A stretch of 64,000 nucleotides of DNA from Cyanidioschyzon merolae (lineage: Eukaryota). This document shows, in pieces, positions 25,295-58,100 of this stretch. The stretch lies in the NCBI GenBank assembly GCA_000091205.1, contig AP006500.2; one strand, given 5' to 3'. A program made the translations under genes and the position numbers. Positions within the stretch are counted from its first letter, which is position 1, and each line of letters starts with the position of its first letter. The notes below the pieces were generated by a model, which made no database searches, was not told where the DNA came from, and saw only the letters and a program-made list of their open reading frames with translations.

Positions 25295-27844
25295 TCAAAC
25301 GGATGCTTGGTTATCTGTCTCGTCCCAGAGCGGTACACGCAACACCGGCTCTATCAAAACAACCCAGGGCTGTAGCCCCGACTGCTCTTTGATGATATCG
25401 CTGGCAGGCCGCTCCGCTCGCAGATCATCACCCCAGGATGCAACCAGCAGCACATCGATCCACACAAAAGGCATGGTGAGCACATATCGAAGCGACTGGG
25501 AGAACGCCTCCACTCGCTCTGGTTCAGCCGTTGACCAGCTCATGTTCGTCCCAGTGCAGAGCGTTGTCAGATCCTCGTCAAGTACCCAAGCCGAAATCAC
25601 CGTCGGCGCAGAAGCGATTATTTTCCGATTTTCGAAACGCAGGTCGTCATTTAGAAACGGCTGATTTTCCACCGCTTCTTTCGATCCACTCGGGCACTGG
25701 AATGGCAGATCTGTCAAAAGCAGCTGCAGCATGTGCCGCGAGTCAGCGTCAACGATCCAGTGCACGTCGCAGACGCAGGCGTACACGCGGTAGAGCCGAT
25801 GCATTGGAGTGTCGGCGCGCGCGCACGCATTACCCGCTGCACGCATCGAGCGCAGTGCACGCATGTCATCCAACATATGCGCAAGCGACTGAGGGCGTAG
25901 CGCTTGCCAGGGTATGCTCATCGTTGAACTTGTCTGTAGCAGCGGTGGACCACTACAATGCAGGCAGCTGGGGTGCTGTACAGGACCCCGTTTGACAATT
26001 CCTGTCTCTGCGGACTCGATATTAGTCGTTGTATGGGAGGTGGTGGTGTAGGCAACGCGTTCGCGATTCAGTTCGGTGCACGGGGCGCTGAGTATGGGAT
26101 AGGCAGCAGCGCTCATTTGTTCCGGTGTATTTCGGGTGCCAAGCGCACGCTGGTGAGCAACGGGCGCTGCTTCGTATGCGCTTTGCGAATCGGTCCGACA
26201 CGTGGGATCAGTCAATGCTGCTCCCAAGTGCTGCATGCGACTTTGCACCTCGGGCATCCATTGCGGGAACTTGTAAATCGATGAACCCTCATTCATGGTC
26301 AGGCGCAAAGGCAGACCCGGGCGTCGATCGAGGCGTACATCGCGAAGCCGGAACCAGTTACCGCGAAGGTGCGGCTCCAGTCGATGTGTGAGCCGCGTCC
26401 AGCACTCTGCGGCAATGGAGACCGTCACCAAATCGGAGATGCTTCCGTCGGTGACTTTGAGCAGGAATTCGTACGGGGTTTTCTCCAAGTCCCGAATGAG
26501 CACCACCAGATCGTATCGTAGCCGTTGCATGGCGCTGCCGTTTGCTGAGTCGACCACAAGCGAACTTTGCAGAATGTCTCGCAGGGTGGCGGAGAACGCC
26601 TTCGAGCCGAGAAAGCCGCTTTGCGACAGGAGTGCACGCGCCCAACGTAGCAACTCCATGGCGTAACATTTTTCACTATTGGTGATCACGATCGATTTCG
26701 TGTTTGACGGGTAAGCATATATGAGCGGATCGGGTAAATGATTCATTTCTTCGAGATGAGTGGCGGTCGCGGCTCGCAGACCGGACAAGTCTCCGGAAGC
26801 GGAAGCCGACGAGCGTCCCAAACCAGCTCCCTCATCATGCTGAGCAAGTGCAGGCCAGAGGCACATAGAAGAGAGCGAATTTGTCTTCAGCTCCAACGTC
26901 TCCGTCTTCGAACCACTCGGACTCTGTTGGGGAAACCACCGCAGCTCGGCGCGATGTACCCGGACGACGTCTCCTACCCCGATGTACGGAACGCAATCGC
27001 TAAGACGGCTACTGAACGAGGTAAGCATGAATTGGGGAGGTGCGAAGCTCACCAGCCGCCCATCAGAGTCTGTTACGACGATGCTTGGATCGATGATCTG
27101 CAGCTCAGTGAGCAGTTCTCCGGTACGTACCAGGCGAGGCGCCCGGACGTCGACGATCACCCCGTAAACGTCATACGTGCGACCGGACATCTGGCCGGGG
27201 TGTCGCAACTGCTCAAGCGTTAAGTAGTGATGTTTTGAGTCCAGGGGCACTACAGGCCTCGGAACTGGTTCGCAACTTTCGTGCTGTGCGACGGGGCGTC
27301 CACTGGTGTCCGTCCCTGCACCATGCTCTGTGACGACCAGAGTTTGCCCTATAGACTCCGGAGACAGCTTCATGATACGTGCGTTTGCAAGTTGGGATAG
27401 ATCGTTGCACTTGCCGGCGTCTTTGAATATGGTGAGCGCGGGTTTGCAGGCTGTTGCGTCTGCGGCACCAGCACAGCAGGCCTCTCGCTGGTCAGGACCC
27501 AGTACCACCGCGTACTCGTGTAGTTCCAGACACGAGTCCAACAGTCCATGGTCCCTGGCCTCACAAATGTCGCCCAGCGGTACGACCTGTGCGTTCTGAA
27601 CCTCCACAACGTCCCAGTGTGCTAGGGCGGTGCCCGCGGCCGTCCAGTCGCCGGTGCAAACAAGCACAACCACGGTCTGCTGTGGAGCAGGAACACTCGG
27701 CCAGGGCTCAAGTAAAGCAAGGATCGCTCTACCTGAACGATTTTCAACTAATGTTCGAAGGACTCGCCCTCGTAGACGAAATGGATGCTCAGCGTTGCAG
27801 GTGTAGGGCTTGAGGCTCCGAAACTGCACGAGACGCAGTTCCAT
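25295..27844 (-). CDS. hypothetical protein (~850 aa). Possible OB-fold-like segments; function unknown.
   Basis: Long uninterrupted minus-strand frame 25295-27979. The track start at 27979 overlaps the 3' end of the Fanzor-like frame, so the downstream ATG at ~27844 (MELRLVQF) is preferred. Segments such as TYDVYGVIVDVRAP..TGELLTELQIIDPS resemble ssDNA-binding OB folds, but only weakly. Confidence 0.4.
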   Translation of the reverse strand: MELRLVQFRSLKPYTCNAEHPFRLRGRVLRTLVENRSGRAILALLEPWPSVPAPQQTVVVLVCTGDWTAAGTALAHWDVVEVQNAQVVPLGDICEARDHGLLDSCLELHEYAVVLGPDQREACCAGAADATACKPALTIFKDAGKCNDLSQLANARIMKLSPESIGQTLVVTEHGAGTDTSGRPVAQHESCEPVPRPVVPLDSKHHYLTLEQLRHPGQMSGRTYDVYGVIVDVRAPRLVRTGELLTELQIIDPSIVVTDSDGRLVSFAPPQFMLTSFSSRLSDCVPYIGVGDVVRVHRAELRWFPQQSPSGSKTETLELKTNSLSSMCLWPALAQHDEGAGLGRSSASASGDLSGLRAATATHLEEMNHLPDPLIYAYPSNTKSIVITNSEKCYAMELLRWARALLSQSGFLGSKAFSATLRDILQSSLVVDSANGSAMQRLRYDLVVLIRDLEKTPYEFLLKVTDGSISDLVTVSIAAECWTRLTHRLEPHLRGNWFRLRDVRLDRRPGLPLRLTMNEGSSIYKFPQWMPEVQSRMQHLGAALTDPTCRTDSQSAYEAAPVAHQRALGTRNTPEQMSAAAYPILSAPCTELNRERVAYTTTSHTTTNIESAETGIVKRGPVQHPSCLHCSGPPLLQTSSTMSIPWQALRPQSLAHMLDDMRALRSMRAAGNACARADTPMHRLYRVYACVCDVHWIVDADSRHMLQLLLTDLPFQCPSGSKEAVENQPFLNDDLRFENRKIIASAPTVISAWVLDEDLTTLCTGTNMSWSTAEPERVEAFSQSLRYVLTMPFVWIDVLLVASWGDDLRAERPASDIIKEQSGLQPWVVLIEPVLRVPLWDETDNQASV

Positions 27845-27920
27845 AGATTCCGTCGCACCAACAACGCCGTTCGAAAGTCGAACGACGCCAACGGTGTACA
27901 GTAGTGGCGGGAAAACCGTC

Positions 27921-30423
27921 TTAGAGAAGATGTCTCCAACTGACGTGCAGACACCTCCCCGCCTTTTTGGACCGGCCACCCACTACTGCTTCCAACTTTT
28001 TCTCATCTAGTTCGACTTTGATAGGTTGTCCAATAAAGTTCTCTCTTGTCAGCTCTGGAGGTCTCGTCTCCAGGACCGCACATCTCCGTACATTGATAGC
28101 GGCATTAAAGTCTCGGTTCACAAACTCCATACGTTTCTTCCCGTTGCGAGTTGTACTCACTATTGCGAGTAGCCCTCGAACTTTCGCCCTCCTTTCCATT
28201 TGCTCCTCCGTCAGCGGTCCGTACTTTGCTATTTCCTCAGGGCTCCTCTGGCACTTTTCTATCTCCACGCTCTGAAGTGTACAACCCAGTTCGTGGTATA
28301 TATACGATGTTCGGAACTCATCTACAGGTATCGTAACAAAACGCCTTGCGCACTGTTTGTGCACCCTCGTCGTTGGAGCTGGAGTAGTGCCTTTCTTGGG
28401 CGCCCAGCGCCCTGCCCCATACGCTACTACGAGCCTTTGACTTTCATCCTCCTTCAAGGCGCTCAACTGATTGAAAAAGTTGGCAAACGCCCGCTGCTTC
28501 CCACCGTATAGATTCATTCGCAAACGAGCCCACCGGGGCTTCGTATACTCCTCCCACAGCGCATCCCAATGCGCCATGCGAACTTCCATGAATTTCCGAA
28601 AAGCTTCAAATTTCGCGCTTCGGCTAGTCACCTTGCTCAAAGCTTCCAGGTGATCCTTCATCCCTGAATTCCAAGTCTCGATTTTCTTCCTTGCATTCAT
28701 GATTCCCGATTCTCGATAGTATCTCGCTCTCGAGAACGTCAAGAGACGCATGTCTTTCTGACGTAAGTTGCCGTCAGTACAATCTTCCGCCCGCTTCGGT
28801 GCTGCGATGGTGATGATATTTGAGTTTCCGGTGTCCGCGCCAACGACAAAGTCGTTATCTTGCACTTTCTGCTTCTCAGAACCGGGCTTCTTGTTTTCTT
28901 CATGGTTCGTCGCGTCAACGACAAAGTCGTTATCCTGCACCTCCTGCACCAGAGGATCCGCTTCCTTCCCATCTTCATCCTTCGTCACGTCAACGACAAG
29001 GTCGTTATCCTCCACCTCCTGCATCGCAGGTTCTGCCTCCTTCTCATCTTCATCGTTCGTCACGTCAACGACAAAGTCGTTCTCTTGCACCTCCTGTGTC
29101 GCAGGATCCGCCTCCTTCTCATATTCATCCTTCGCCACGTCAACGACAAACTCGTTATCCTCCACCTCCTGCATCACAGGATCCTCCTCTTTGTTTTCTC
29201 CATCCTTCGCGACGAGCGCAGCCGAGGGCGGAACTGGCCGACCTTCCTTCAACCGCCGATAGTGTACACACAAGGGTACTCCATCGGTTTCGATCAACCC
29301 AGTAAATACCTTTTTTTGCTGACTTTTAGACGTTTGAAATCGAAGATACTCTTCCAGTACGTCTCCCGGTGTTCGCCGGAGAACTCCTCCCTGCTAACAT
29401 CGAACTCCGGACAGATCTCCCTCATGATGCCGTAAAGGACGCCGGAGTCGATAGTTACAAAATGTGACTTGACTTTCCACATTGGAACCACGTTGAAGCG
29501 CTTCCCCATTAGGAAATTCTTCCGTCTCTCCCACTGTTCATTTGTCTCTTCACTCAGCTTCACCTCCGCTTTGCGTGCGAGCTCTCGGTCCAAAAACACG
29601 AAATAGCGCAGGATGAGGCGGTAGTATCTTTCCTTATCTTTTTTCAACGGTGATATCTTGTCTGTTGGATTCACCAACCCAGTGCCGCACGGTGCTCTTG
29701 TATAGCCGCACGGATCACAGAAGCTTCATTCGTGCTCCTGCGTGATGTCTTCATATCGACAAATTCGATCTCATCTTCATACTTTCGATCGTTCGTGATG
29801 CCGTTGATCATCGCCCATATTCCTTTGCGAGAGATGCCCGGGTAGAGTGCAAACACGGCGCGTTTCATGAAACGTTCGAGGTTCTCTGTCAAATGCTTCT
29901 TCAGGTTCGTAATGTACTTCATTACCCCGTATGTGTAAATATTTCCGTCACCCTTGTATCGGGTACGCTCGAAGCGGTATTCGGCGTAGTTTTCGTGGAG
30001 AGCGTGCACTAGCACATTTTCCTTCCGCGCTTCCCCTGTACCAAGCATCAGGTGACGAATAAAGGTCTTGTGGAAAAACTCGTCTGGAATCTCGACCGTT
30101 TCCATGTGCGTCACGTCGCGATACATCTCCCTCGCCAAATGCATCAGCCCTGAAGACGCCTTGACAATACTCTTGGAGTGCGAGTCGACACGTTTTTCGA
30201 TAGCGTCTCGCAACTTTTCCCTGTAGGGATCCTTGATATGTCCAAGAAGGAAGGCTTTCACCACCATCTCGTCGTACAGTCGTCTTTCTTGCCGCCTTCG
30301 ACGTAGGGCGTCCACCTTTCGATTCTCCTTCACTTCCTTTTCTTCTGGACTCGGCACTGTATTTGTTTTTTTTCTGGCAGCCGGCGACACTGGGCCTCCA
30401 GGATCGTGGACTTGCTTTTTCAT
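27921..30423 (-). pseudogene. TnpB/Fanzor-like RNA-guided RuvC endonuclease homolog (OrfB_IS605 family). The frame of about 835 codons is split into three ORF-track segments (30423-29671, 29677-29294, 29297-27921) by two +1 frame changes.
   Basis: Middle segment: RuvC-I-like ..[16 protein letters not shown].. (Asp codon ~29436-29438). 3' segment: TnpB-type ..RRFVTIPVDEFRTSYIYHELGC.. (the 'VDP.YTSQ.C' block) and RuvC-III ..EFVNRDFNAAINVRR.. (Asp codon ~28110-28112). The CxxC zinc ribbon is mostly missing, and the canonical RuvC-II Glu position reads ..RLVVAYGAGRW.. (substituted). The middle and 3' segments begin with TTG in the ORF track, and their frames stay open upstream and overlap. One junction coincides with the A7/T7 run at 29311-29317. 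Confidence 0.7.
28847..29192 (-). repeat. five tandem 75-bp repeats encoding an acidic 25-aa unit (consensus ~QEVxDNDFVVDVTxDEDxKEADPxx) inside the Fanzor-like frame
   Basis: The period is visible directly in the DNA (gtcaacgacaaagtcgttatcctgcacctcctgc... recurring every 75 nt) and in the translation (PVMQEVEDNEFVVDVAKDEYEKEADPATQEVQENDFVVDVTNDEDEKEAEPAMQEVEDNDLVVDVTKDEDGKEADPLVQEVQDNDFVVDATN...). It sits between the RuvC-I and RuvC-II regions. Confidence 0.85.
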
Positions 30424-30780
30424 AGCTTTCCTTTTTTAGTTTTTTTGAGAAAGAACGCTCTTTGAACCCTTCTGTTATATACTGCGAAAAATTAATCGAA
30501 TATTTTTACTTGAGGTTTGAAGCACAATCGAACTGAAAGACTGTACGTTGCTATGACCTGAACGAAAATACAACGTTTACAATAGATCTACATGCTAGAG
30601 ATCAGGATCACGTTCCCCTTCAAAAACGGCATGTGCGTCGTGTCTCATGCCTGCCTGATCTCCGAGGTGCGCTCACTGAGCGCGATGCAAACTAGTCACA
30701 AACTATTTATCAAAGAACAACTATCTTTAAGCCCAACACACCACGCCCGCATAAGAGGTCTAGTTTTTCCGGAGAAGCTC
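30424..30780. promoter_or_regulatory. AT-rich (~35-40% GC) spacer directly upstream of the Fanzor-like frame start; putative promoter or element end
   Basis: Sharp drop in GC (tttttttagtttttttgagaaagaacgc...ttatatactgcgaaaaattaatcgaatatttttacttg) compared with ~60% in the flanks. It lies between divergently oriented mobile-element reading frames. Confidence 0.3.
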
Positions 30781-31289
30781 TGAAAGTGGGCGAACGCGGG
30801 GTGCTTGGGCGACGGCGAAGGAAGCCCACGACAGGGACGTTGACCGCAACGAACAGAGGGGCGCAGACAGTGGCAGCAGAAAATATTGACGAGGGTTCTG
30901 AGCAGTCATCCGCTGCTCTCGAAACAACGCTGCAGGCTCCGGCGCAAATCCTGGATTCATTCTTGAACTCGGGCTCAGGATTACCTCCTACATTGGTTTC
31001 TACCTCAACTCTGGAAACAGTCTCGGCGGATACTTTGGAAGACGGCTGGCAGTATGTTCGCGGTCGAAGCTGGAATAAGCGACTTATCCGCCTATGTGTT
31101 TGGGGAGCGGATACGAAGCCGCTGAAAGGGTAGTTCGTAGAGTATCCGCTGTGGTTGCGGGTAGCTTCACGCGTCCGGCAAGATAAAGGTCGCATTCGAA
31201 TCGACCTTGACTAATGTACTTCTGATTTTACGCTAGCACTGCGGCAAGCACTCAGTGAACGACTGGAATGCAGGAGGCAATGGTGGCGT

Positions 31290-34200
31290 GTGCGTTCTCA
31301 CACCCTGGGGAGGGTGCATCTAAATCGACGACGTATCTCTGGAGTACCGCAGCGTTACTCCTATTCCCTTATGCGCTACGACTCGATAGGTTTCGCATCA
31401 TGGAATATTTGTGGGATAGCCTCGATACTAGACGACGAGATATCGAATTACCAGTACAGTAATGAAGAACTGATACAAGTCGTTGACTGTACAATGGGTA
31501 AAGAGACCCAACCAGATACGGAGAAGGAGACACAGAAACCTCATGATCCACCTAGATGCAAAATATCCAGAGAAAGCAGCTCAGGAAAGAGCCCGAAGAA
31601 GAAGAAGACCAGCAAGAAAAAATAGATGAATAGAAAGAAGAACTCCCAAACGAGCCCATCACAAGTCATCCCCCGAAAGGGCACCCCAGCGGGATCTCAA
31701 GAAAGCTGTCACCAAACCCAGGCACCTGCTCACAGCGCTGAAGATCCGAAAAGCCGTGAATACAAATCTTCAGACCAATTGGCACGCGAGTTTGTAGATG
31801 GGAATCAGAAGATTGCCAGAGAACTGGGACTGCTTGCACCTGAACACAACAGTAGCAAGCCGCAGTACCTCAAACGACGTACCAAAACTCGGATTGATGA
31901 ATGCCACCGACTCCATAAGATCGTCAACCGCACCGCCATACGCGCCAACGCCGGAGACAAGGAAGCGAAAGCAGCGCTACCGGCGCTACAGGCGCAACAT
32001 GAAGAAGCTATCAAAAGAAAGAAGAAACTTTCCAGAGAAGACAAACGAGAGGATCGAAACCGCAAAATGGCCTCCCTGACGGAATTTATGCTCGAGAGCA
32101 CCAACGAAGATGAGACCTAGCGCTCCATTCGATCGAGACTGGACCCACCAAAAAAGTGCTTGGGGCTCACACCAATCGTTTATGAGGAAGCGCTGAGGAC
32201 GGAGCGTGCCTCAGGGAATGAGGCCTGGATAAACCACGGGATAGAGCTGCATGAAGACGCAACTGGGCACTGCCGAAACCGAAACTATTGGCAACAGTAT
32301 GCATCAGAACTACTACGCCTCGACCCGGTACCGGAATGGAACGACCCAATCTTCTGGACTGAATCTGTTCGGACCCTGCTATGCTCAAGCAACCGCAAAA
32401 CACCTGGCTTTAACGGTATCCCTGCGGAGTGGATGAGACTGGCGATTCCAAAAGACGGGACAACAGGGACACCATCGATACCAGATGAACCTGACACAAT
32501 CTTAGGCAAACGCCTTGTGGAGCTCATCCAACGCATGTTCGAAGAGGCGTACATCCCGGATGTATGGAGGACTGCCGAGGTCGTACCGATCCTCAAAAAG
32601 GACTCCCACACAGACATGAACAACTACTGGACTATGCGCCTCATCCCGTCAATCATGAAGCTACTTTGCGCCATCCTCACGAACCGGATCCAGACGCGCT
32701 TCGAGGAGCGCAAGTTCTTCGCCTCAGAACAGGCTGGATTCCGGAGCCGCAAGGAGTGCATGAGCCATGTCCTGACCCTCATTGGAGTGGCGCAACGTCG
32801 CTTCATTAGCGACCAACAACCAACTTACGTATGCTTCGTCGACTTTCAAAAGGCTTGTGACACGTTCCCGCATGAGGCTCCATTTCTGAAGATGGGACGA
32901 TCCGAAGTCTCCGGAAAGTGCTTGGCGTTCTTCCGTGCGCTCTATGCAGACTCATGGATGCGCATCCGACTGGGCGACAGCTCAAGAACCCCTTGTATAC
33001 GAATCCACCGTGGACTGCGACAGGGCGACCGCGCATCCCCGCTCCTTTTCAACATCTTCATCAACGATCTGCTTAACAACTGCAGACAATACGGGCTTGA
33101 GGTGCCGTGGATAGACTGTGGAGATGCCCGATGAGGAGCGCCCATTTGGGAACCGCCTCGCAGGCCGTTTAGTTGCGGACGATGCCGTGCTGTTGGCAAA
33201 CGCCCCGGAAACGCTTGCTGCTAGCATGGAACAAGTCAGCGCCTGGGCCGATCGCTGGGGTATGAGCATAGGAGCATCGAAGTGCGGCGTCATGCTCATC
33301 CATGGAGACTCGCAGAGCATTCGCAATCGCTCGTGGCGGTTGCAGAATCAGGAAATTCCGATCGTGGAAACATATCGCTACCTGGAGGGTCTGTCGCACG
33401 CCGACGCTCGACGAAAAGGCACACGTTAACGAGATGATCGCCAAGATGCATAGACGTACAGCGATCGCACGCCCATTCCCATCCGACCCCTCTATCCGCT
33501 TAGCAATCCGTACGAGGGCACTAAGGATGTGTATCATCCAGCCTGCGACCTGGGGTACTGAATGGTGCGGCATGAAGCACGCAAATGCCTCGCGTCTGCA
33601 GACAGCCGCCAACAGGGCAATGCGACTCGTTGTTGTTGTTGGATGCTCAATGCAGAGCAGAGCAACCAACCCGTTGACACTCGGACTTGAACTCCAAATA
33701 CCCTCGATAGAAGCGATAGCAGCAGGTTGCCGGGTACGTATATGGGCCAAAGGGCCCGCCATGCGCACCTCTTTGAGTCGGAGTTTCATGCAGACCCCAA
33801 CGCACCGCAAGAAAACTTGGATGAAATCGACGCAGATTTGGCAGAAGCGCCTCTTGGGCGAAAACACGCTCCCCAATCGTTCCCCAGAAATATAGAATTC
33901 TCCCGTCGCCTGAAGCGAACGGTCCAAACGCCAATATGGGAAGGTAGACATGGTACCAGTCGCGCTAGTAACGCCGGCTTGACTCTATATCGGAACTACA
34001 ACCTAGCATACACATGCAAGTACTGGTGGGAGGCGCTGGAATTCCCGGGACTTGCTCGCGGTACCCTGTGGCTTGCCAAAATCCGTGTTAGTGGCATCTG
34101 GCTACCAGCACCGGCTCTAAGCCGTACGGGAACACTGGAACCGCACTGGGAGTCACACTGTCCCTGCTATCGAGAAGAGACCCCTCGAGACGCTGACATA

Positions 34201-34900
34201 TTTGGGCTTACAGTGCCCGCGCTCGAAGCAGGAGCGCAGCGAGCTCCTTGGAGGACACCAGCAGCTGGGCATCACCGTGATAGTCGAAGGCCGGACACTC
34301 ACTCTGAGTATAGCACCGGCAACTGATGGTCCGATAACCGAGCCTCAGCGCTCATCAGTGGCGAACAAACTCACATGCTACCTTCTAGGCATGAGGTCCA
34401 GCGTATCGGATGCGCACACGGGTTTAGTGCACTTTCTGCGCCTACCCACTGTGGTGGGTGTCAAGCACAAACCCGCATTGCCAACCTACAACACATTCAA
34501 TGCATGATCACGAAGGAGAGAGGCGGCTCCCAGGATTCAACCTAACAGCCAAGTTTCTACAGCGTGTATTGCGGCGAAGGCAAGCCTGCATTTGCAGACT
34601 ATCCGAGCACAAACTGACGACGAGACCCGATTCTACGTCGGGTGAACCACACCTCGAGCCGACGCCCTTTGTGGTATAGAAAAGCTGTTCTAGCTCTATG
34701 AGCTATCTGCTCCAGCGTTCAAGTGCAAAGGCGAATACGGAACGGCAGGTACTAGGCACACACGATAGGACGTATGAAACGACCAGAATATCCGAGACGA
34801 AGTATAGCTAATGTAACATGGGAGTAGGGGGTTGATGAATACCTCACCTCGCACTGAAAAAACAAACACACAATAAAAGTAGGAAAAGAAGAATGCGCAT
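31290..34900 (+). mobile_element. degenerate non-LTR (LINE-type) retrotransposon copy. One long frame holds a basic N-terminal region and a reverse transcriptase. Two in-frame TAG codons and frameshifts inactivate it. A-rich 3' tail region.
   Basis: Frame 0 is continuous from 31290 to 33134 except for TAG at 31623-31625 and TAG at 32118-32120. The RT motifs are listed under the next feature. Later parts shift to other frames (33118-33429, 33302-33895, 33727-34326). An A-rich stretch ctgaaaaaacaaacacacaataaaagtaggaaaagaag lies near 34850-34900. No APE endonuclease domain was recognised. Confidence 0.75.
32160..33429 (+). pseudogene. LINE reverse-transcriptase domain (frameshifted near 33118-33134)
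   Basis: RT motifs 0-7 are listed below with a VADD variant of YADD. The 32160 start is a TTG artefact of the ORF track. Confidence 0.8.
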
Positions 34901-35357
34901 GATCGGAGAACGCTGGCCTAAGTAAACGTTTTGTCCATGAAAACAATCGTAGCTTCAGCAACGGTGAAACCGGGGCTCGGCGTTCCGCGGGGCATGCTCC
35001 ACTGACTTGTCGAATATGCACGAAAATTGTCGAATTCATTGCTGATGACGCTGCTACTGTGTTGCAGTAGTACGCAGTGGACCTGTCTTCTGCGAGTCTC
35101 GAGAACATTTTGCACTCGAACGGAAACCTGTACGTTCGGACGCTTAGACCATTCGCGTCAGAGGATGCTTTTCAAAATGCATTCTTATCGGGAAAACTCG
35201 AACGTCTCCGCGCAATACCCAGCCATATTACCGGCACTAGCGTGGCCGATTGGCCCCCTTCGACGCCGCTGGCTACAGAGCACTAGTAACCGAGACGCTC
35301 TGGGCATCTCGCAAGCATCGCGTTGCCAATCGCATGGATAAGCTCTGGAATGCCAGC

Positions 35358-55133: not shown

Positions 55134-58100
55134 CGTGTTCCAGAGGTACTCGTCTCGCCGCGGAGCTGTTTGTCACGGCATCCAGTAGTAGAGCTGCTGC
55201 TGCTGGTGCTGGTGCTGGTGCTGGTGGTGCTGCGAGATTGCCGGCCTCGGAGCTGTGGGCGGAGCGCGCGCGCGCCCCCCCCGGAAGTCCGTTGGCGACG
55301 GCGGCGGCTTTGGCTTTGGCTTCGACGCCATGCGGGCGATGCGCAAGCCATGACCGTTTTGTACGCAATTGTCGTGACTAGATATTTTTGTTCTTCGAGG
55401 CTGAGCGGCCGCATGAATCGCCTGTCGATTCGTTGCGTGACGCCCGTACGCAGTCATCACGAATCATGGAACATTTTATGGGTCTGCGGTGACGCCCGGA
55501 GACCGTTCGCTGTATATCCATACAGCGAGCTGGTCTTCCTGGATTATTGATCGTACCATATGAATGTCTCGCACAAGGTGGCGATGCATCTCGCGGAGCC
55601 ACGGATTTATTTTTCATGGAAAGTATCCTGCATTTCAGCAACATATCAGCACGACGTACGCAACGATTCCTTCGAGCGTGCGTTCGATACAGAACCAGTA
55701 GACGCTTTGGAAACAGACGATATTTCCGAAGGTTGATTGAGGCGTTCAGATCTCGGTAAGGAAAGTGCTTGTGCGCTCGGTTGCTGCTGGTGGCAGCAGA
55801 CGCTAGCGAGCCGCTCACTTTCGATTTTTCGCGCCATTCGACTTTCGGTTAACGGTTCGTGCACCAATCTCGGACATCTGTCTCTGTTTCACGCACTGCT
55901 TACCGAGTTGTTTCAAGGTGCAAACCTGCCCATGATTCGTGGACGGCACCCTCAACGCATCGACGGGAATCGTGTAAAATCGATGACTGCACTTGTTGGA
56001 TACGCGCTTATCATAGAATCAGGAGTGCTGGCTCTGCGCGCTCCAGCATGTCCAGCGCCATCAGCTACGATGGGAGAACGCGAGTTATCAGCGATCTCCG
56101 TTTCCAACTCGAAGAATCATTTCGTGAGCACGCGCTCCTTGACGCGATGCTACCGAAAATCGTCGACGACCGCAGCGCGGTCTCATGGACGCACCCTGAA
56201 TACAGCGCAGAAAGACTCGCTTCTCTTAGATACTGTGCTGAGAGCGTCGATATGGATGCGGAAGTCGGTATTCCATTCACTGGCATGCCGCCGGACGCCC
56301 GAAGATAACGAGCCCCGGAAGAATTGAGCAGATCCGATTACTCTCCATCCAGGCGTTGGATCTCTCCTCCGGATGAAGAGGTACAGCGTTGGCCACGGGG
56401 AACCGGCCGTACCTGGAATCGACGATCACCACTGGTCGAAGCACGATTTGCGGAAGACCGGTGTTCGGGATGCGAAGTGCTCGTGCATTGATCCGTGAAC
56501 GCAAACATGACATTTGATCACCACGAAGACGCCTCTGACTTGACCGACGCAGGGAGCATAGGCAGGCACGAGGAGCGGCTCAACGCCAGTCTCAGCTGCG
56601 TAGTTCGTGACCGCTTTTGAATGAGAGAAGCCGACGTTGTCAAAGAGCACGGCTGACGAATGCGTTGCGGAGAAGCCGCAAACGTGCCTCGACCAAGGAT
56701 GTCGTATCGAATGATCCTGTTCGTTTTTTTTCGGATTCGTCAGCGAGCACACCACTGACCCACTGATTCCGGCTCGAGTCGTCGTCACGCGTTCTTGTCT
56801 CCTGTTTACCGACAGAACGCGGGCTTCTCTTTGTGTGCCCCCGTATAACGCTACCGCTTCTCTCTCGAGTCAGACGACTACCCGTGGATCCTGTACCAAC
56901 TGCTCGCATTCCAGGTCGACCCCGATCGCGTACTGATCAACGCGAGACGGTCTCCCGTGGACGCATGCGTTTCACTTCTTCCGGCCGAGTCTCTGCTTTA
57001 ACGCTCGCATCAACGGTACGGAAACTTTACATTCTGTGGCGTTTTCGTGGTGACCTGCCTTTGGAATCGTATAAAGTTGAATCGATTGACGACGAGATCT
57101 TCATGTAGATGGAGCTGGATATGTTCTCTTTCGGGTGCATGACGTCCAGGATACGGACGACGAGATGGACCATTCGTGTGCCTGCTGACGGTAATCCATC
57201 TGACTTGCATCAATAATTCCGTACAGCCTCAGATATTCCAGAATCCACTGCACTGGGCGGAACCTGAATCCCCTTGGGATGCTTTTCGTGCTACCGCTGG
57301 CACCCGGAGAACTGCCAACAGCGCCTTCGTAGATACCTCTTTCTTCGACTGACTCCCTACCCGTTTTCTTCCGTCTCGAATAGATCCTGCGACGTGATAA
57401 GTGTGTCGTCGGCAATGATGCAACTGTACTTGACGATGCTGGATGTGCTGATACCGTCGTCTGTGCGGGGCAACGCCTCCGACCTTACCGTGCATGCGGA
57501 GACGACTGCCCAAGGTAGCGGCGTCTGAATGTGCGCTCCGGGTAGCGAGCGCCGGTGCCTCCGCTCTACGGGAGACACACGGTAGCAGTCGGGTGCTGTC
57601 CGTAGCGGTTAAGGGAACTTGCCATGCTGTCGTTTCAGCCAGTGCTGGCTCGTACCTTTACTGCTGCCAACTGGCAGCGCTCTAGTCTCAACTCAGGAGC
57701 TGACGCGCACGCGAGGACGTTCCTGAAGAGAAGCACGTACCCAGCGACTGCTTCGTGTACACGCCGAGCACAACCGAGCCCCACGAGCACCGTCCAGTTC
57801 CTGATGTGTAAGGGTGATGAAAAGCCAGCGTACTTGCGGTTCCCGATACCCGCGTATGGTTATCTCGGCATTTCGAGCGTACTGGCGATTGCGGCAATAG
57901 GTTCTGTGTTCGAGCTCAGCTCCGGGAAGCCGCAGTACGGGGTCGTGTTCACCGCGAGCGTGTTGGCTCTGAGCCTGCCCGGGTTTCTGGCCACCTTCTG
58001 GCTCGCTTTGGAAAAGGGACGAGACGAGTCTGACCAATAGCTTTCAAGGGTTTGGGAGTAGGAGGAGCCCCGCCCTGGCATCGCTTGCAGGCTGGAGAGA

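Follow-up and report, generated by a model that had tools for sequence, protein, structure and literature searches.

Fanzor1 proteins, whose enzymology and structures date from 2023–2024, bind an omega-RNA, for which the 3′ end of their own gene and the right end of the transposon serve as template, and the 3′ guide of this RNA directs the protein to cut matching DNA beside a short motif. Their RuvC site consists of an Asp (RuvC-I), a relocated Glu and an Asp (RuvC-III). Bacterial TnpB proteins occur in a prokaryotic insertion sequence context together with TnpA (a Y1 HUH or serine recombinase), are about 400 aa in length and have the canonical RuvC-II Glu. For Fanzor proteins, it has been described as the norm that Gly or Pro occupies the canonical place of the RuvC-II Glu and that an alternative Glu is found further downstream (PMC10530073), and a C4 zinc ribbon between [TS][TS] and RD was part of the Fanzor motif definition of 2013. 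The element CMe-1A is known with ~150 copies at ~80% to the consensus, which is 3169 bp in length, codes for a protein of 734 aa and lacks terminal inverted repeats (TIRs) (Bao and Jurka 2013, Mobile DNA 4:12; PMC3627910). The same founding paper lists the protein by name as Fanzor1 CMe-1 (PMC3627910).

The window, i.e. the whole analysed stretch of 64,000 nt of Cyanidioschyzon merolae contig AP006500.2, contains a locus that is very probably one inactivated copy of CMe-1A, a multi-copy, Fanzor1-only transposable element of this alga (Table 1). Outside a 100-aa repeat insert, the repaired protein is identical to the published CMe-1 consensus in 505 of 630 positions (80%), which equals the copy-to-consensus divergence of ~80% given for CMe-1A. 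Both stem from the same host genome, both proteins start with M.K.V.DPGGPVSPAA and share VVAYGAG, VDEFRTSY.HHELGC and EKCQ, and in both elements Fanzor is the sole ORF and TIRs are absent. As to the host, three proteins encoded in the window match the C. merolae 10D entries BAM82604, BAM82610 and BAM82611 exactly. The window copy differs from the consensus in protein length (834 vs 734 aa), in its two frameshifts and in a retroelement abutting its 5′ end. The consensus features a 5′ module of 635 bp, TE-N2_CMe, and the core in the window starts where this module ends; a unit of ~3.17 kb with TE-N2_CMe as its 5′ 635 bp was not found here, the copy beginning at the junction at 30688. Since the core starts at this position, next to the retroelement instead of TE-N2_CMe, the copy is a core-only variant of the CMe-1A family. 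The original prediction regarded the locus as not tied to a known element, which does not hold: element family, host, copy number and Fanzor1 assignment were already published in 2013.

Table 1 Features of the CMe-1A copy and its surroundings (positions within the window)
Feature	Position	Strand	Remarks
Core Fanzor1 module of CMe-1A	27856-30688	-	~265-nt 5′ leader, broken ORF, ~65-nt 3′ tail
Sub-terminal palindrome GCGCTCAGTGAGCGC	30683-30669	-	5 nt inside 5′ boundary
ORF 1, Fanzor1 pseudogene segment 1	30423-29671	-	250 aa; N-terminal, REC-like helical region
ORF 2, Fanzor1 pseudogene segment 2	29677-29294	-	127 aa; carries HFVTIDSGV
ORF 3, Fanzor1 pseudogene segment 3	29297-27921	-	458 aa; acidic repeats, RuvC-I/II/III, cysteine-poor TNB region
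Frameshift 1	29676-29677	-	1-bp deletion, TTT to TT in GGGTT(T)GG
Frameshift 2	29311-29317	-	A8 to A7
75-bp tandem repeat inside ORF	28841-29209	-	4.9 copies, 81% matches
RuvC-I motif DFVVGADTGNSNII (FVVGADTGNSN)	28853-28812	-	Asp codon 28835-28833; aligns with iDPnk of SpuFz1 and DPGr of PpFz1
Canonical RuvC-II position, VVAYGAG	28430-28410	-	Gly codon 28418-28416 replaces Glu
VDEFRTS, alternative catalytic Glu	28325-28305	-	Glu codon 28319-28317; aligns with DEYkTS of SpuFz1
TNB region	28304-28119	-	without C4 zinc ligands; 2 Cys, no CxxC
RuvC-III motif NRDFNAAINV	28118-28089	-	Asp codon 28112-28110; aligns with NRD of SpuFz1
Conserved non-coding 3′ tail	27920-27856	-	box CGCCACTACTGTACAC 27909-27894; terminal hairpin 27889-27863
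RT-bearing retroelement fragment, separate	30689-33674	+	head-to-head with Fanzor module; RVT_1 match in 32160-33134
~1.27-kb repeat 'X'	33675-34946		elsewhere found, in both orientations, directly at 5′ end of Fanzor core

The minus-strand frame of ~835 codons recognised beforehand is real. After repair of two 1-bp homopolymer deletions, three contiguous minus-strand ORFs form a single frame of 834 aa, and the ATG of segment 1 coincides with the start of the published CMe-1 consensus. Repair was performed by inserting one T at 29676-29677 (GGGTTGG to GGGTTTGG) and one A into the A7 run at 29311-29317. Both insertions are backed by intact paralogs, e.g. P0003, against which the postulated split by two single-base shifts was confirmed. 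The second is also backed by the orthologous environmental locus L004, in which the run is A8 and the frame is intact at this site. Frameshift 1 is common to the window copy and L004, whereas frameshift 2 is missing from L004 and found in the same A7 state in another environmental ortholog, L001. With its ORF in three pieces, this copy cannot give rise to a full-length protein by ordinary translation. The tandem repeat encodes acidic units of 25 aa, duplicates of the stretch leading into the RuvC-I strand (..QDNDFVV..). Five such units are present here (four of them extra), compared to one in the published CMe-1 consensus, and the P0003 model shows disorder over the corresponding region. As a small refinement, the copy number of this in-frame repeat upstream of RuvC-I is variable.

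It is very unlikely that the gene is intact and functional, with the breaks either being homopolymer sequencing errors or being overcome at the A-run, through slippage during transcription or through ribosomal frameshifting. Both breaks do fall in homopolymers (T2/T3, A7/A8), none of the three aligned catalytic residues has been lost and one ortholog has A8. However, the same TT site is found in the independently assembled ortholog L004, A7 recurs in L001 and GGGTTGG does not form a slippery site. Programmed frameshifting at the A-run also came into consideration and was judged unlikely. The C. merolae 10D genome is a finished assembly, which counts against sequencing errors. L004 and the window copy are 99.0% identical over an aligned 2.8 kb. 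Between them, the Fanzor ORF shows 22 substitutions and one indel in ~2.15 kb, with a neutral-looking ratio of 6 synonymous to 16 non-synonymous changes, and the adjacent POT1-like ORF shows 14 differing sites in ~2.55 kb (9 to 5); counts are small in both cases. The divergence of the Fanzor ORF is about twice that of the neighbouring gene, and most related copies are visibly broken too. Comparison of the paralogs with the longest ORFs yielded dN/dS values of 0.29–0.46, indicating that the protein was under selection while the family spread. The window copy itself is a dead pseudogene, which seems to have drifted neutrally since its breakage. It had been described as possibly decayed or still programmable; decay is supported, and programmability is not, given the two frameshifts and the neutral-looking substitutions.

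The protein is a Fanzor1, a eukaryotic TnpB homolog. HMM searches and structure prediction had been proposed as checks of this assignment. The former gave a divided result: no Pfam model matched the three window ORFs, even at E ≤ 1, or six close full-length homologs, while a profile built from 63 relatives matched the Fanzor1 chains PpFz1 (E = 1.1e-23), SpuFz1 (4e-17) and GtFz1 (7e-12) among the PDB sequences, and no other. The profile was needed for these matches because a single-sequence phmmer search against the PDB only yielded SRP at E = 0.36, which was rejected as spurious. A precomputed label, PF26935 (DUF8286), is uninformative. Structure prediction was carried out for paralog P0003, which is 79% identical to the window protein, and resulted in an AF2 model with a pLDDT of 83 and a pTM of 0.80. 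During a Foldseek comparison of this model with the PDB, the top seven matches were all Fanzor1 (E = 6.7e-17 to 1.2e-13, target TM 0.50–0.72), and Fanzor1 structures were the only fold matches at E ≤ 0.001; Cas12, TnpB and Fanzor2 came next, at E ≥ 6e-3. There are 167 close homologs of the window protein and 2770 clusters at E ≤ 0.001, which places the frame far beyond chance. There is next to no probability that a protein of another RNase H-fold family resembles TnpB in its motifs by chance. The absence of Pfam matches for the window ORFs and of a significant single-sequence PDB match would be in line with such a resemblance, but profile-to-PDB matches (E 1e-23 to 7e-12) and paralog fold matches (E ≤ 1e-13) are exclusively Fanzor1, PF07282 is matched by 21 of the 63 relatives and the protein is named Fanzor1 CMe-1 in the founding paper (PMC3627910). 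The Fanzor call of the original prediction is therefore borne out, and more specifically as Fanzor1.

VDEFRTS, NRDFNAAINV, VVAYGAG, HELGC and EKC, all highlighted beforehand, were found in the window. FVTIDSGV is present as well (29461-29438), but had been mistaken for RuvC-I: the RuvC-I motifs of SpuFz1 and PpFz1 align with DFVVGADTGNSNII, located 205 residues further downstream, of which the D and G are invariant in the alignments of 63/64 sequences. The Asp of FVTIDSGV is also invariant in the family, and its order ahead of the beta-strands preceding RuvC-I suggests that the motif belongs to the WED domain. In the family alignments, the Gly of VVAYGAG is invariant, as is the Glu of VDEFRTS 33 residues downstream. 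This arrangement, previously judged to be atypical, corresponds to the described Fanzor norm (PMC10530073). The R, D, N and N of the RuvC-III motif are invariant across the family alignments. By our own count, the Asp of NRD in SpuFz1 is chain residue 1000, which would be D606 given an offset of 394 residues for MBP plus linker. The D, E and D codons listed in Table 1 are all encoded and align with SpuFz1 and PpFz1 motifs; judged by this alignment, the window copy still appears to encode three residues corresponding to the RuvC catalytic triad.

The zinc ribbon had been called degenerate, and HELGC and EKC indeed provide its only cysteines. No match to PF07282 (OrfB_Zn_ribbon) was obtained for the window ORF. 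In a cysteine census, CxxC pairs are missing from most of the sampled clade members in which the motif could be located, and the zinc-ribbon stretch compared from the published CMe-1 consensus has the same two Cys. A C4 zinc ribbon is thus not universal and no bar to Fanzor1 membership, since a named founding member, in the stretch compared, has the same two Cys and most sampled clade members are without CxxC. The degeneracy is hence not a sign of decay of this particular copy, the consensus stretch and most sampled relatives being alike, and the loss of zinc ligands seems to be widespread in the clade rather than peculiar to the window copy.

The 5′ limit of the core was deduced from blastn end points in 80 related loci, 27 of which end at 30670-30689 and 19 of these at 30680-30689. 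At the other side, 53 loci end at 27850-27869, and the 3′ limit can be placed no more sharply than between 27864 and 27852. At least four different sequences were found as 5′ neighbours of the Fanzor core, with the junction falling on the same nucleotide each time. The core has its own sharp, hairpin-bearing ends and is separable from TE-N2_CMe, which is a small refinement of the published description. By inspection, the left-end sequence bears no relation to the right end read in reverse complement, i.e. no TIRs were found, and a separate sub-terminal palindrome lies at either end. Inverted repeats of ~600 bp around Fanzor in loci L064 and L041 were considered as long TIRs and rejected, since they enclose ORFs read as host ATP synthase beta subunit and Nop10. 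The mobile unit is probably a core of 2.5–2.8 kb bounded by sub-terminal hairpins and without TIRs. The sequences flanking unique insertions showed no consensus target-site duplication or TAM, and no transposase for the CMe-1A element was detected.

On its 5′ side, the junction between retroelement and Fanzor is common to locus L021, and a near-junction is present in L065. The distal 300 bp of repeat 'X' resemble TE-N2_CMe. A low-GC island had been noted, and GC values of 0.49–0.51 over 28–32 kb and 0.53–0.56 up to ~35 kb, compared to ~0.55–0.60 in most flanking windows, agree with it; much of the island is accounted for by the retroelement fragment. A search of the window for tRNA genes found none. 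The start codon of the POT1-like host ORF lies 12–20 bp past the 3′ end of the Fanzor core. This position directly upstream of a host ORF, conserved in two environmental relatives, could be taken for a single-copy host gene derived from Fanzor and domesticated for a cellular function. We consider such a domestication, as opposed to a transposon copy, scarcely credible: metagenomes contain more than 350 confirmed related stretches, 80 loci of these share sharp boundaries in different flanks, ~150 genome copies are known from the literature (PMC3627910), and the frameshifted ORF evolves neutrally. What the locus holds is a multi-copy Fanzor1 of a eukaryotic host, carried by a transposable element.

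The 3′ tail is a candidate for the 3′ part of an omega-RNA scaffold and/or a right-end recognition site of the transposon. Its terminal hairpin is kept in ~35 of 46 copies despite differing sequences. A 3′ structure built by hand combined the terminal hairpin with another hairpin spanning the stop codon and with a long-range helix (94-99/189-194, 107-111/184-188). Its covariation was weak, with 21 cells changed on both sides compared to 13 ± 2.9 in shuffles. RNAalifold, applied to 46 non-redundant copies over their 3′-terminal 230 nt, returned only a single invariant stem of 4 bp, and no Rfam match was obtained for the candidate 3′ RNA. Along the element, conservation stays level at 0.83–0.93, without a non-coding peak.

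The CMe-1A element would encode a Fanzor1 of ~730 aa, a eukaryotic TnpB homolog. We tentatively propose, as a possibility short of an expectation, that the CMe-1 lineage is part of a large Fanzor1 clade (~2770 clusters at 50% identity), most sampled members of which lack the TNB zinc cysteines, the protein having nevertheless been under purifying selection (dN/dS 0.3–0.46) during the spread of the family. Its TIR-less, hairpin-ended mobile unit of 2.5–2.8 kb might then fit ssDNA (HUH-like) transposition, one-ended transposition or RNA-guided homing, and not capture by a cut-and-paste transposon. C. merolae is a thermoacidophile; if the proposal is true, the intact paralogs that it carries could be RNA-guided nucleases that tolerate heat and do not depend on zinc. 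As a discovery the locus carries little weight, being part of an ordinary, already described element family. It demonstrates that a Fanzor can be recognised from raw sequence, although RuvC-I was mislabelled and features normal for the family were taken for anomalies. The window copy is now documented as a pseudogene, and minor new details are the exact core boundaries, the hairpins at both ends, the four extra 75-bp repeats and the retroelement at the 5′ end. Core ends, zinc-ligand loss and 75-bp repeat variation could guide tests of an intact CMe-1 paralog as a nuclease.

Compared to the solved Fanzor1 structures of SpuFz1 (8GKH, 9CEU-9CEZ), PpFz1 (9CF0-9CF3) and GtFz1 (9CER-9CET), the model of P0003 features the same bilobed fold, while the identity is a mere 12–14%. 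The alignable D, alternative E and D residues are common to both sides, as are Gly at the canonical RuvC-II position and the DE[FY]xTS and NRD motifs. In contrast to SpuFz1 and PpFz1, the window protein lacks the C4 zinc ligands (CxxC...C..C), and the window element is without the TIR context of a cut-and-paste transposon. Bacterial TnpB of IS200/IS605 and IS607 (e.g. ISDra2, 8H1J) has the RuvC core and the TS-x-x and RD-x-NAA-x-NI signatures in common with the window protein, but matches the P0003 model only weakly in structure (E = 0.09, ~274 aligned columns). The window protein is about twice the size of TnpB, has a relocated Glu, is not accompanied by TnpA and resides in a eukaryotic nuclear host. 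An IS200/IS605 or IS607 TnpB was ruled out on the basis of the eukaryotic chromosome, the 834-aa Fanzor as the only core ORF, the Gly at the canonical RuvC-II position and this E value. The ends of the window element nevertheless resemble those of IS200/IS605, which are TIR-less with sub-terminal hairpins, and just as the reRNA of TnpB is encoded at the right end, the window element has a conserved 3′ tail running to its right end.

The minus strand carries three abutting open reading frames that join into one once repaired against an intact relative, protein P0003, confirming the original prediction of a real frame with two single-base shifts. Both breaks are 1-base deletions, located because P0003 reads through the junctions without interruption (...HRAGLGLVNPTDK... 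and ...RLKVSKKKVFIGLIETDG...). Repair yields a protein of 834 aa with no internal stops. The proposed low-GC island was also recovered, with a GC content of 0.49–0.51 over 28–32 kb compared to approximately 0.55–0.60 in most flanking windows. Most features of the Fanzor1 frame had been described correctly.

Positions of the Fanzor1 reading frame, its lesions and the adjoining repeats
Feature	Position	Strand	Remarks
Fanzor1 ORF segment 1	30423-29671	-	250 aa
Fanzor1 ORF segment 2	29677-29294	-	127 aa; abuts segments 1 and 3
Fanzor1 ORF segment 3	29297-27921	-	458 aa
Frameshift 1	29676-29677	-	1-base deletion, TTT to TT
Frameshift 2	29311-29317	-	1-base deletion, A8 to A7
True RuvC-I, DFVVGADTGNSNII	28853-28812		
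75-bp tandem repeat	28841-29209		4.9 copies; equals the 100-aa insertion
Retroelement fragment	30689-33674	+	~3 kb; ORFs 31290-32120, then RVT_1 reverse-transcriptase ORF 32160-33134
Repeat X	33675-34946		1.27 kb; retroelement stands between it and the Fanzor core

Neither the window ORFs nor their close homologs matched Pfam, and a PDB search with the single sequence gave no match establishing the family. The family is of very large size, with 167 close matches and 2770 clusters at 50% identity (E ≤ 0.001). A profile of 63 full-length members matched three PDB sequences only, all Fanzor1: PpFz1 of Parasitella (1.1e-23), SpuFz1 of Spizellomyces (4e-17) and GtFz1 of Guillardia (7e-12). PF07282 (Cas12f1-like TNB, formerly OrfB_Zn_ribbon) was matched by 21 of these members. 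The AlphaFold2 model of P0003, a paralog with 79% identity (pLDDT 83, pTM 0.80), matches the SpuFz, PpFz and GtFz structures with E values of 6.7e-17 to 1.2e-13, while Cas12, TnpB and Fanzor2 follow later, only at E ≥ 6e-3. The Fanzor assignment stands, because these profile and fold matches defeat both objections formulated beforehand, namely the lack of a significant RuvC profile match and a triad that cannot be aligned.

The copy had been regarded as not tied to a known element. It is instead a decayed member of CMe-1A, the one Fanzor1 family listed for C. merolae by Bao & Jurka (2013, PMC3627910). CMe-1A is described with ~150 copies, each ~80% identical to a 3169-bp consensus encoding a 734-aa protein in a single exon; some copies remain intact, TIRs are absent, the TSD is given as undetermined, and the 5′ 635 bp share 95% identity with TE-N2_CMe, a distinct element (PMC3627910). 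Over the 630 consensus residues compared, the repaired protein is identical at 505 (80%), and the single large difference from this part of the consensus is a 100-aa insertion in the window copy. There, the 75-bp repeat multiplies an acidic 25-aa unit whose last residues lead up to the RuvC-I strand. Its copy number differs between paralogs, and the P0003 model is disordered over the corresponding region.

L001 and L004 are orthologous environmental loci with the same insertion beside the same POT1-like ORF. L004 (99.0% identical) has frameshift 1 in common with the window and keeps A8 at site 2, which identifies frameshift 1 as the older; L001 (99.6% identical) has A7 at site 2 and stops short of site 1. 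These shared states indicate that neither break is a window-specific assembly artefact. Compared to L004, the Fanzor ORF (~2.15 kb) shows 22 substitutions (6 synonymous, 16 non-synonymous) and one indel, whereas the POT1-like ORF (~2.55 kb) shows 14 differing sites (9 synonymous, 5 non-synonymous). The Fanzor ORF substitutions form a neutral pattern, with small counts. Most of the paralogs are broken too; dN/dS among those with the longest ORFs is 0.29–0.46, in agreement with the statement of 2013 that the family had preserved its coding capacity (PMC3627910).

Element boundaries were drawn from 80 related loci in environmental metagenomes with Cyanidioschyzon-like genomes. The 5′ limit of homology is sharp (27 loci start within 30670-30689, and 19 of these within 30680-30689), and the 3′ limit lies at 27850-27869 in 53 of the 80. 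The core starts with CATCGCGCTCAGTGAGCGCACC..., including a palindrome (30683-30669), and ends with ...CGCCACTACTGTACACCGTTGGCGTCGTTCGACTTTCGAACGGCGT(TGNTGGTG). Its last ~27 nt form a terminal hairpin (27889-27863), kept in ~35 of 46 non-redundant copies, several quite different in sequence (e.g. L056, L077, L041 type). Formal covariation support for the 3′ structure is weak, and Rfam gave no match. The 5′ boundary of the core falls where TE-N2_CMe and Fanzor sequence meet in the published consensus. At least four distinct upstream neighbours attach to the core at one and the same nucleotide: a TE-N2_CMe-like sequence, a second extension (~550 bp), repeat X (found in both orientations) and a retroelement. 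We infer that the 2.5–2.8 kb core itself is the mobile unit. No transposase was found, and neither TSD nor TAM was readable from the flanks.

Copies of ~1.15 kb (L044, L048, L055, L060, L061, L062, L071, L072, L077) share a start at element coordinate 1457 (window 29232), slightly 5′ of the acidic tandem repeat, and extend as far as the usual 3′ end. These copies may constitute a 5′-deleted non-autonomous subfamily that has kept its RuvC half together with the 3′ tail. In L064 (5935-7725, 8103-8411; 2441-3061, 8597-9094), two inverted copies of a TE-N2_CMe-like repeat (~600 bp) surround a Fanzor copy and ORFs, as in a composite transposon; the enclosed ORFs are taken for host genes (F1-ATPase beta subunit, Nop10), which suggests two independent repeat insertions.

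Three long window ORFs match BAM82604, BAM82610 and BAM82611 of Cyanidioschyzon merolae 10D exactly, and the neighbours are ordinary eukaryotic ORFs (POT1-like, WAPL-like, P5-type ATPase, CHL1/XPD-type and DEAD-box helicases). Within 27842-27864, the right end of the Fanzor element is followed after only 12–20 bp by the earliest in-frame ATG (27844-27842) of the POT1-like ORF (25295-27979). The element occupies the immediate 5′ region of this gene, a position kept in L001 and L004. The retroelement meets the core 5′ end with its own 5′ end, exactly at the core boundary; the junction is the same in the paralogous locus L021 and near-identical in L065, suggesting a duplicated composite or site-specific insertion. 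Repeat X is 86–88% identical to sequence directly upstream of the core in L002/L011 and, in opposite orientation, L054; L014 has a shorter stretch (80% match). Its distal ~300 bp resemble a TE-N2_CMe-type repeat found in ~20 loci. The low-GC island of 28–35 kb as a whole consists of three nested repeats. Another Fanzor1 relic, of much greater age, lies at ~55800-56600 (minus strand). It is spread across three frames (..RARYLRASGGMP.., ..RFYTIPVDALRVPS.., ..HFPYRDLNASINLRKYRLFPKR..; 28–41% identity to the repaired protein) and seems closer to the subfamily of relative P0103 than to CMe-1A.

Fanzor1 endonucleases are guided by an omega-RNA and cut dsDNA in a TAM-dependent manner; this RNA overlaps the 3′ end of the ORF as well as the right end of the transposon (PMC10432273, PMC11423790). 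Intact CMe-1 copies are predicted to work likewise. The window copy belongs to Fanzor1, retains the residues aligned with the triad and has a conserved 3′ tail with a hairpin at its end; it is unable to make Fanzor1 protein. At most, it might be transcribed into RNA usable in trans by intact paralogs. If the 3′ flank of this copy supplied a guide, that guide would match the 5′ end of the POT1-like gene.

The traits first listed as atypical are normal for the family, and one motif had been given the wrong assignment. Invariance across the 64-sequence alignment is limited to 14 columns, including D531 and G533 (GADTG), G670 (AYGAG), E703 (VDEFRT) and R771, D772, N774 and N778 (NRDFNAAIN). In HMM alignments, invariant columns pair with iDPnk, DEYkTS and NRD of SpuFz1 and the equivalent PpFz1 motifs. 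By our count, the Asp of the NRD in SpuFz1 sits at chain position 1000; if MBP tag and linker comprise 394 residues, it would correspond to D606, which Xu et al. discuss as the third residue of the triad. FVTIDSGV (29461-29438), initially taken for RuvC-I, precedes the true motif by 205 residues and comes before the β-strands leading up to it; its Asp (D326) is invariant in the family, and the stretch probably forms part of the WED domain. The seemingly missing RuvC-II Glu is no anomaly: Fanzors have Gly or Pro at the canonical site and an alternative conserved Glu ~45 residues downstream (Jiang et al. 2023), located 33 residues downstream in the window copy.

The cysteine-poor TNB is not decay of this copy either, as the part of the published consensus compared has the same HELGC...EKC. 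Only 6 of 42 relatives with a locatable motif retain any CxxC pair, most having 0–3 Cys. Relatives P0103–P0266 were aligned as a sample of the wider clade (~2770 clusters); between DEFRTS and NRD, most have 0–3 Cys, lack CxxC and conserve the VRGLLWC.ST hairpin, and a C4-like pattern is kept only by a few distant members (P0239, P0255, P0263, P0266). This picture departs from the ‘strictly conserved C4 zinc finger’ of the 2013 motif definition.
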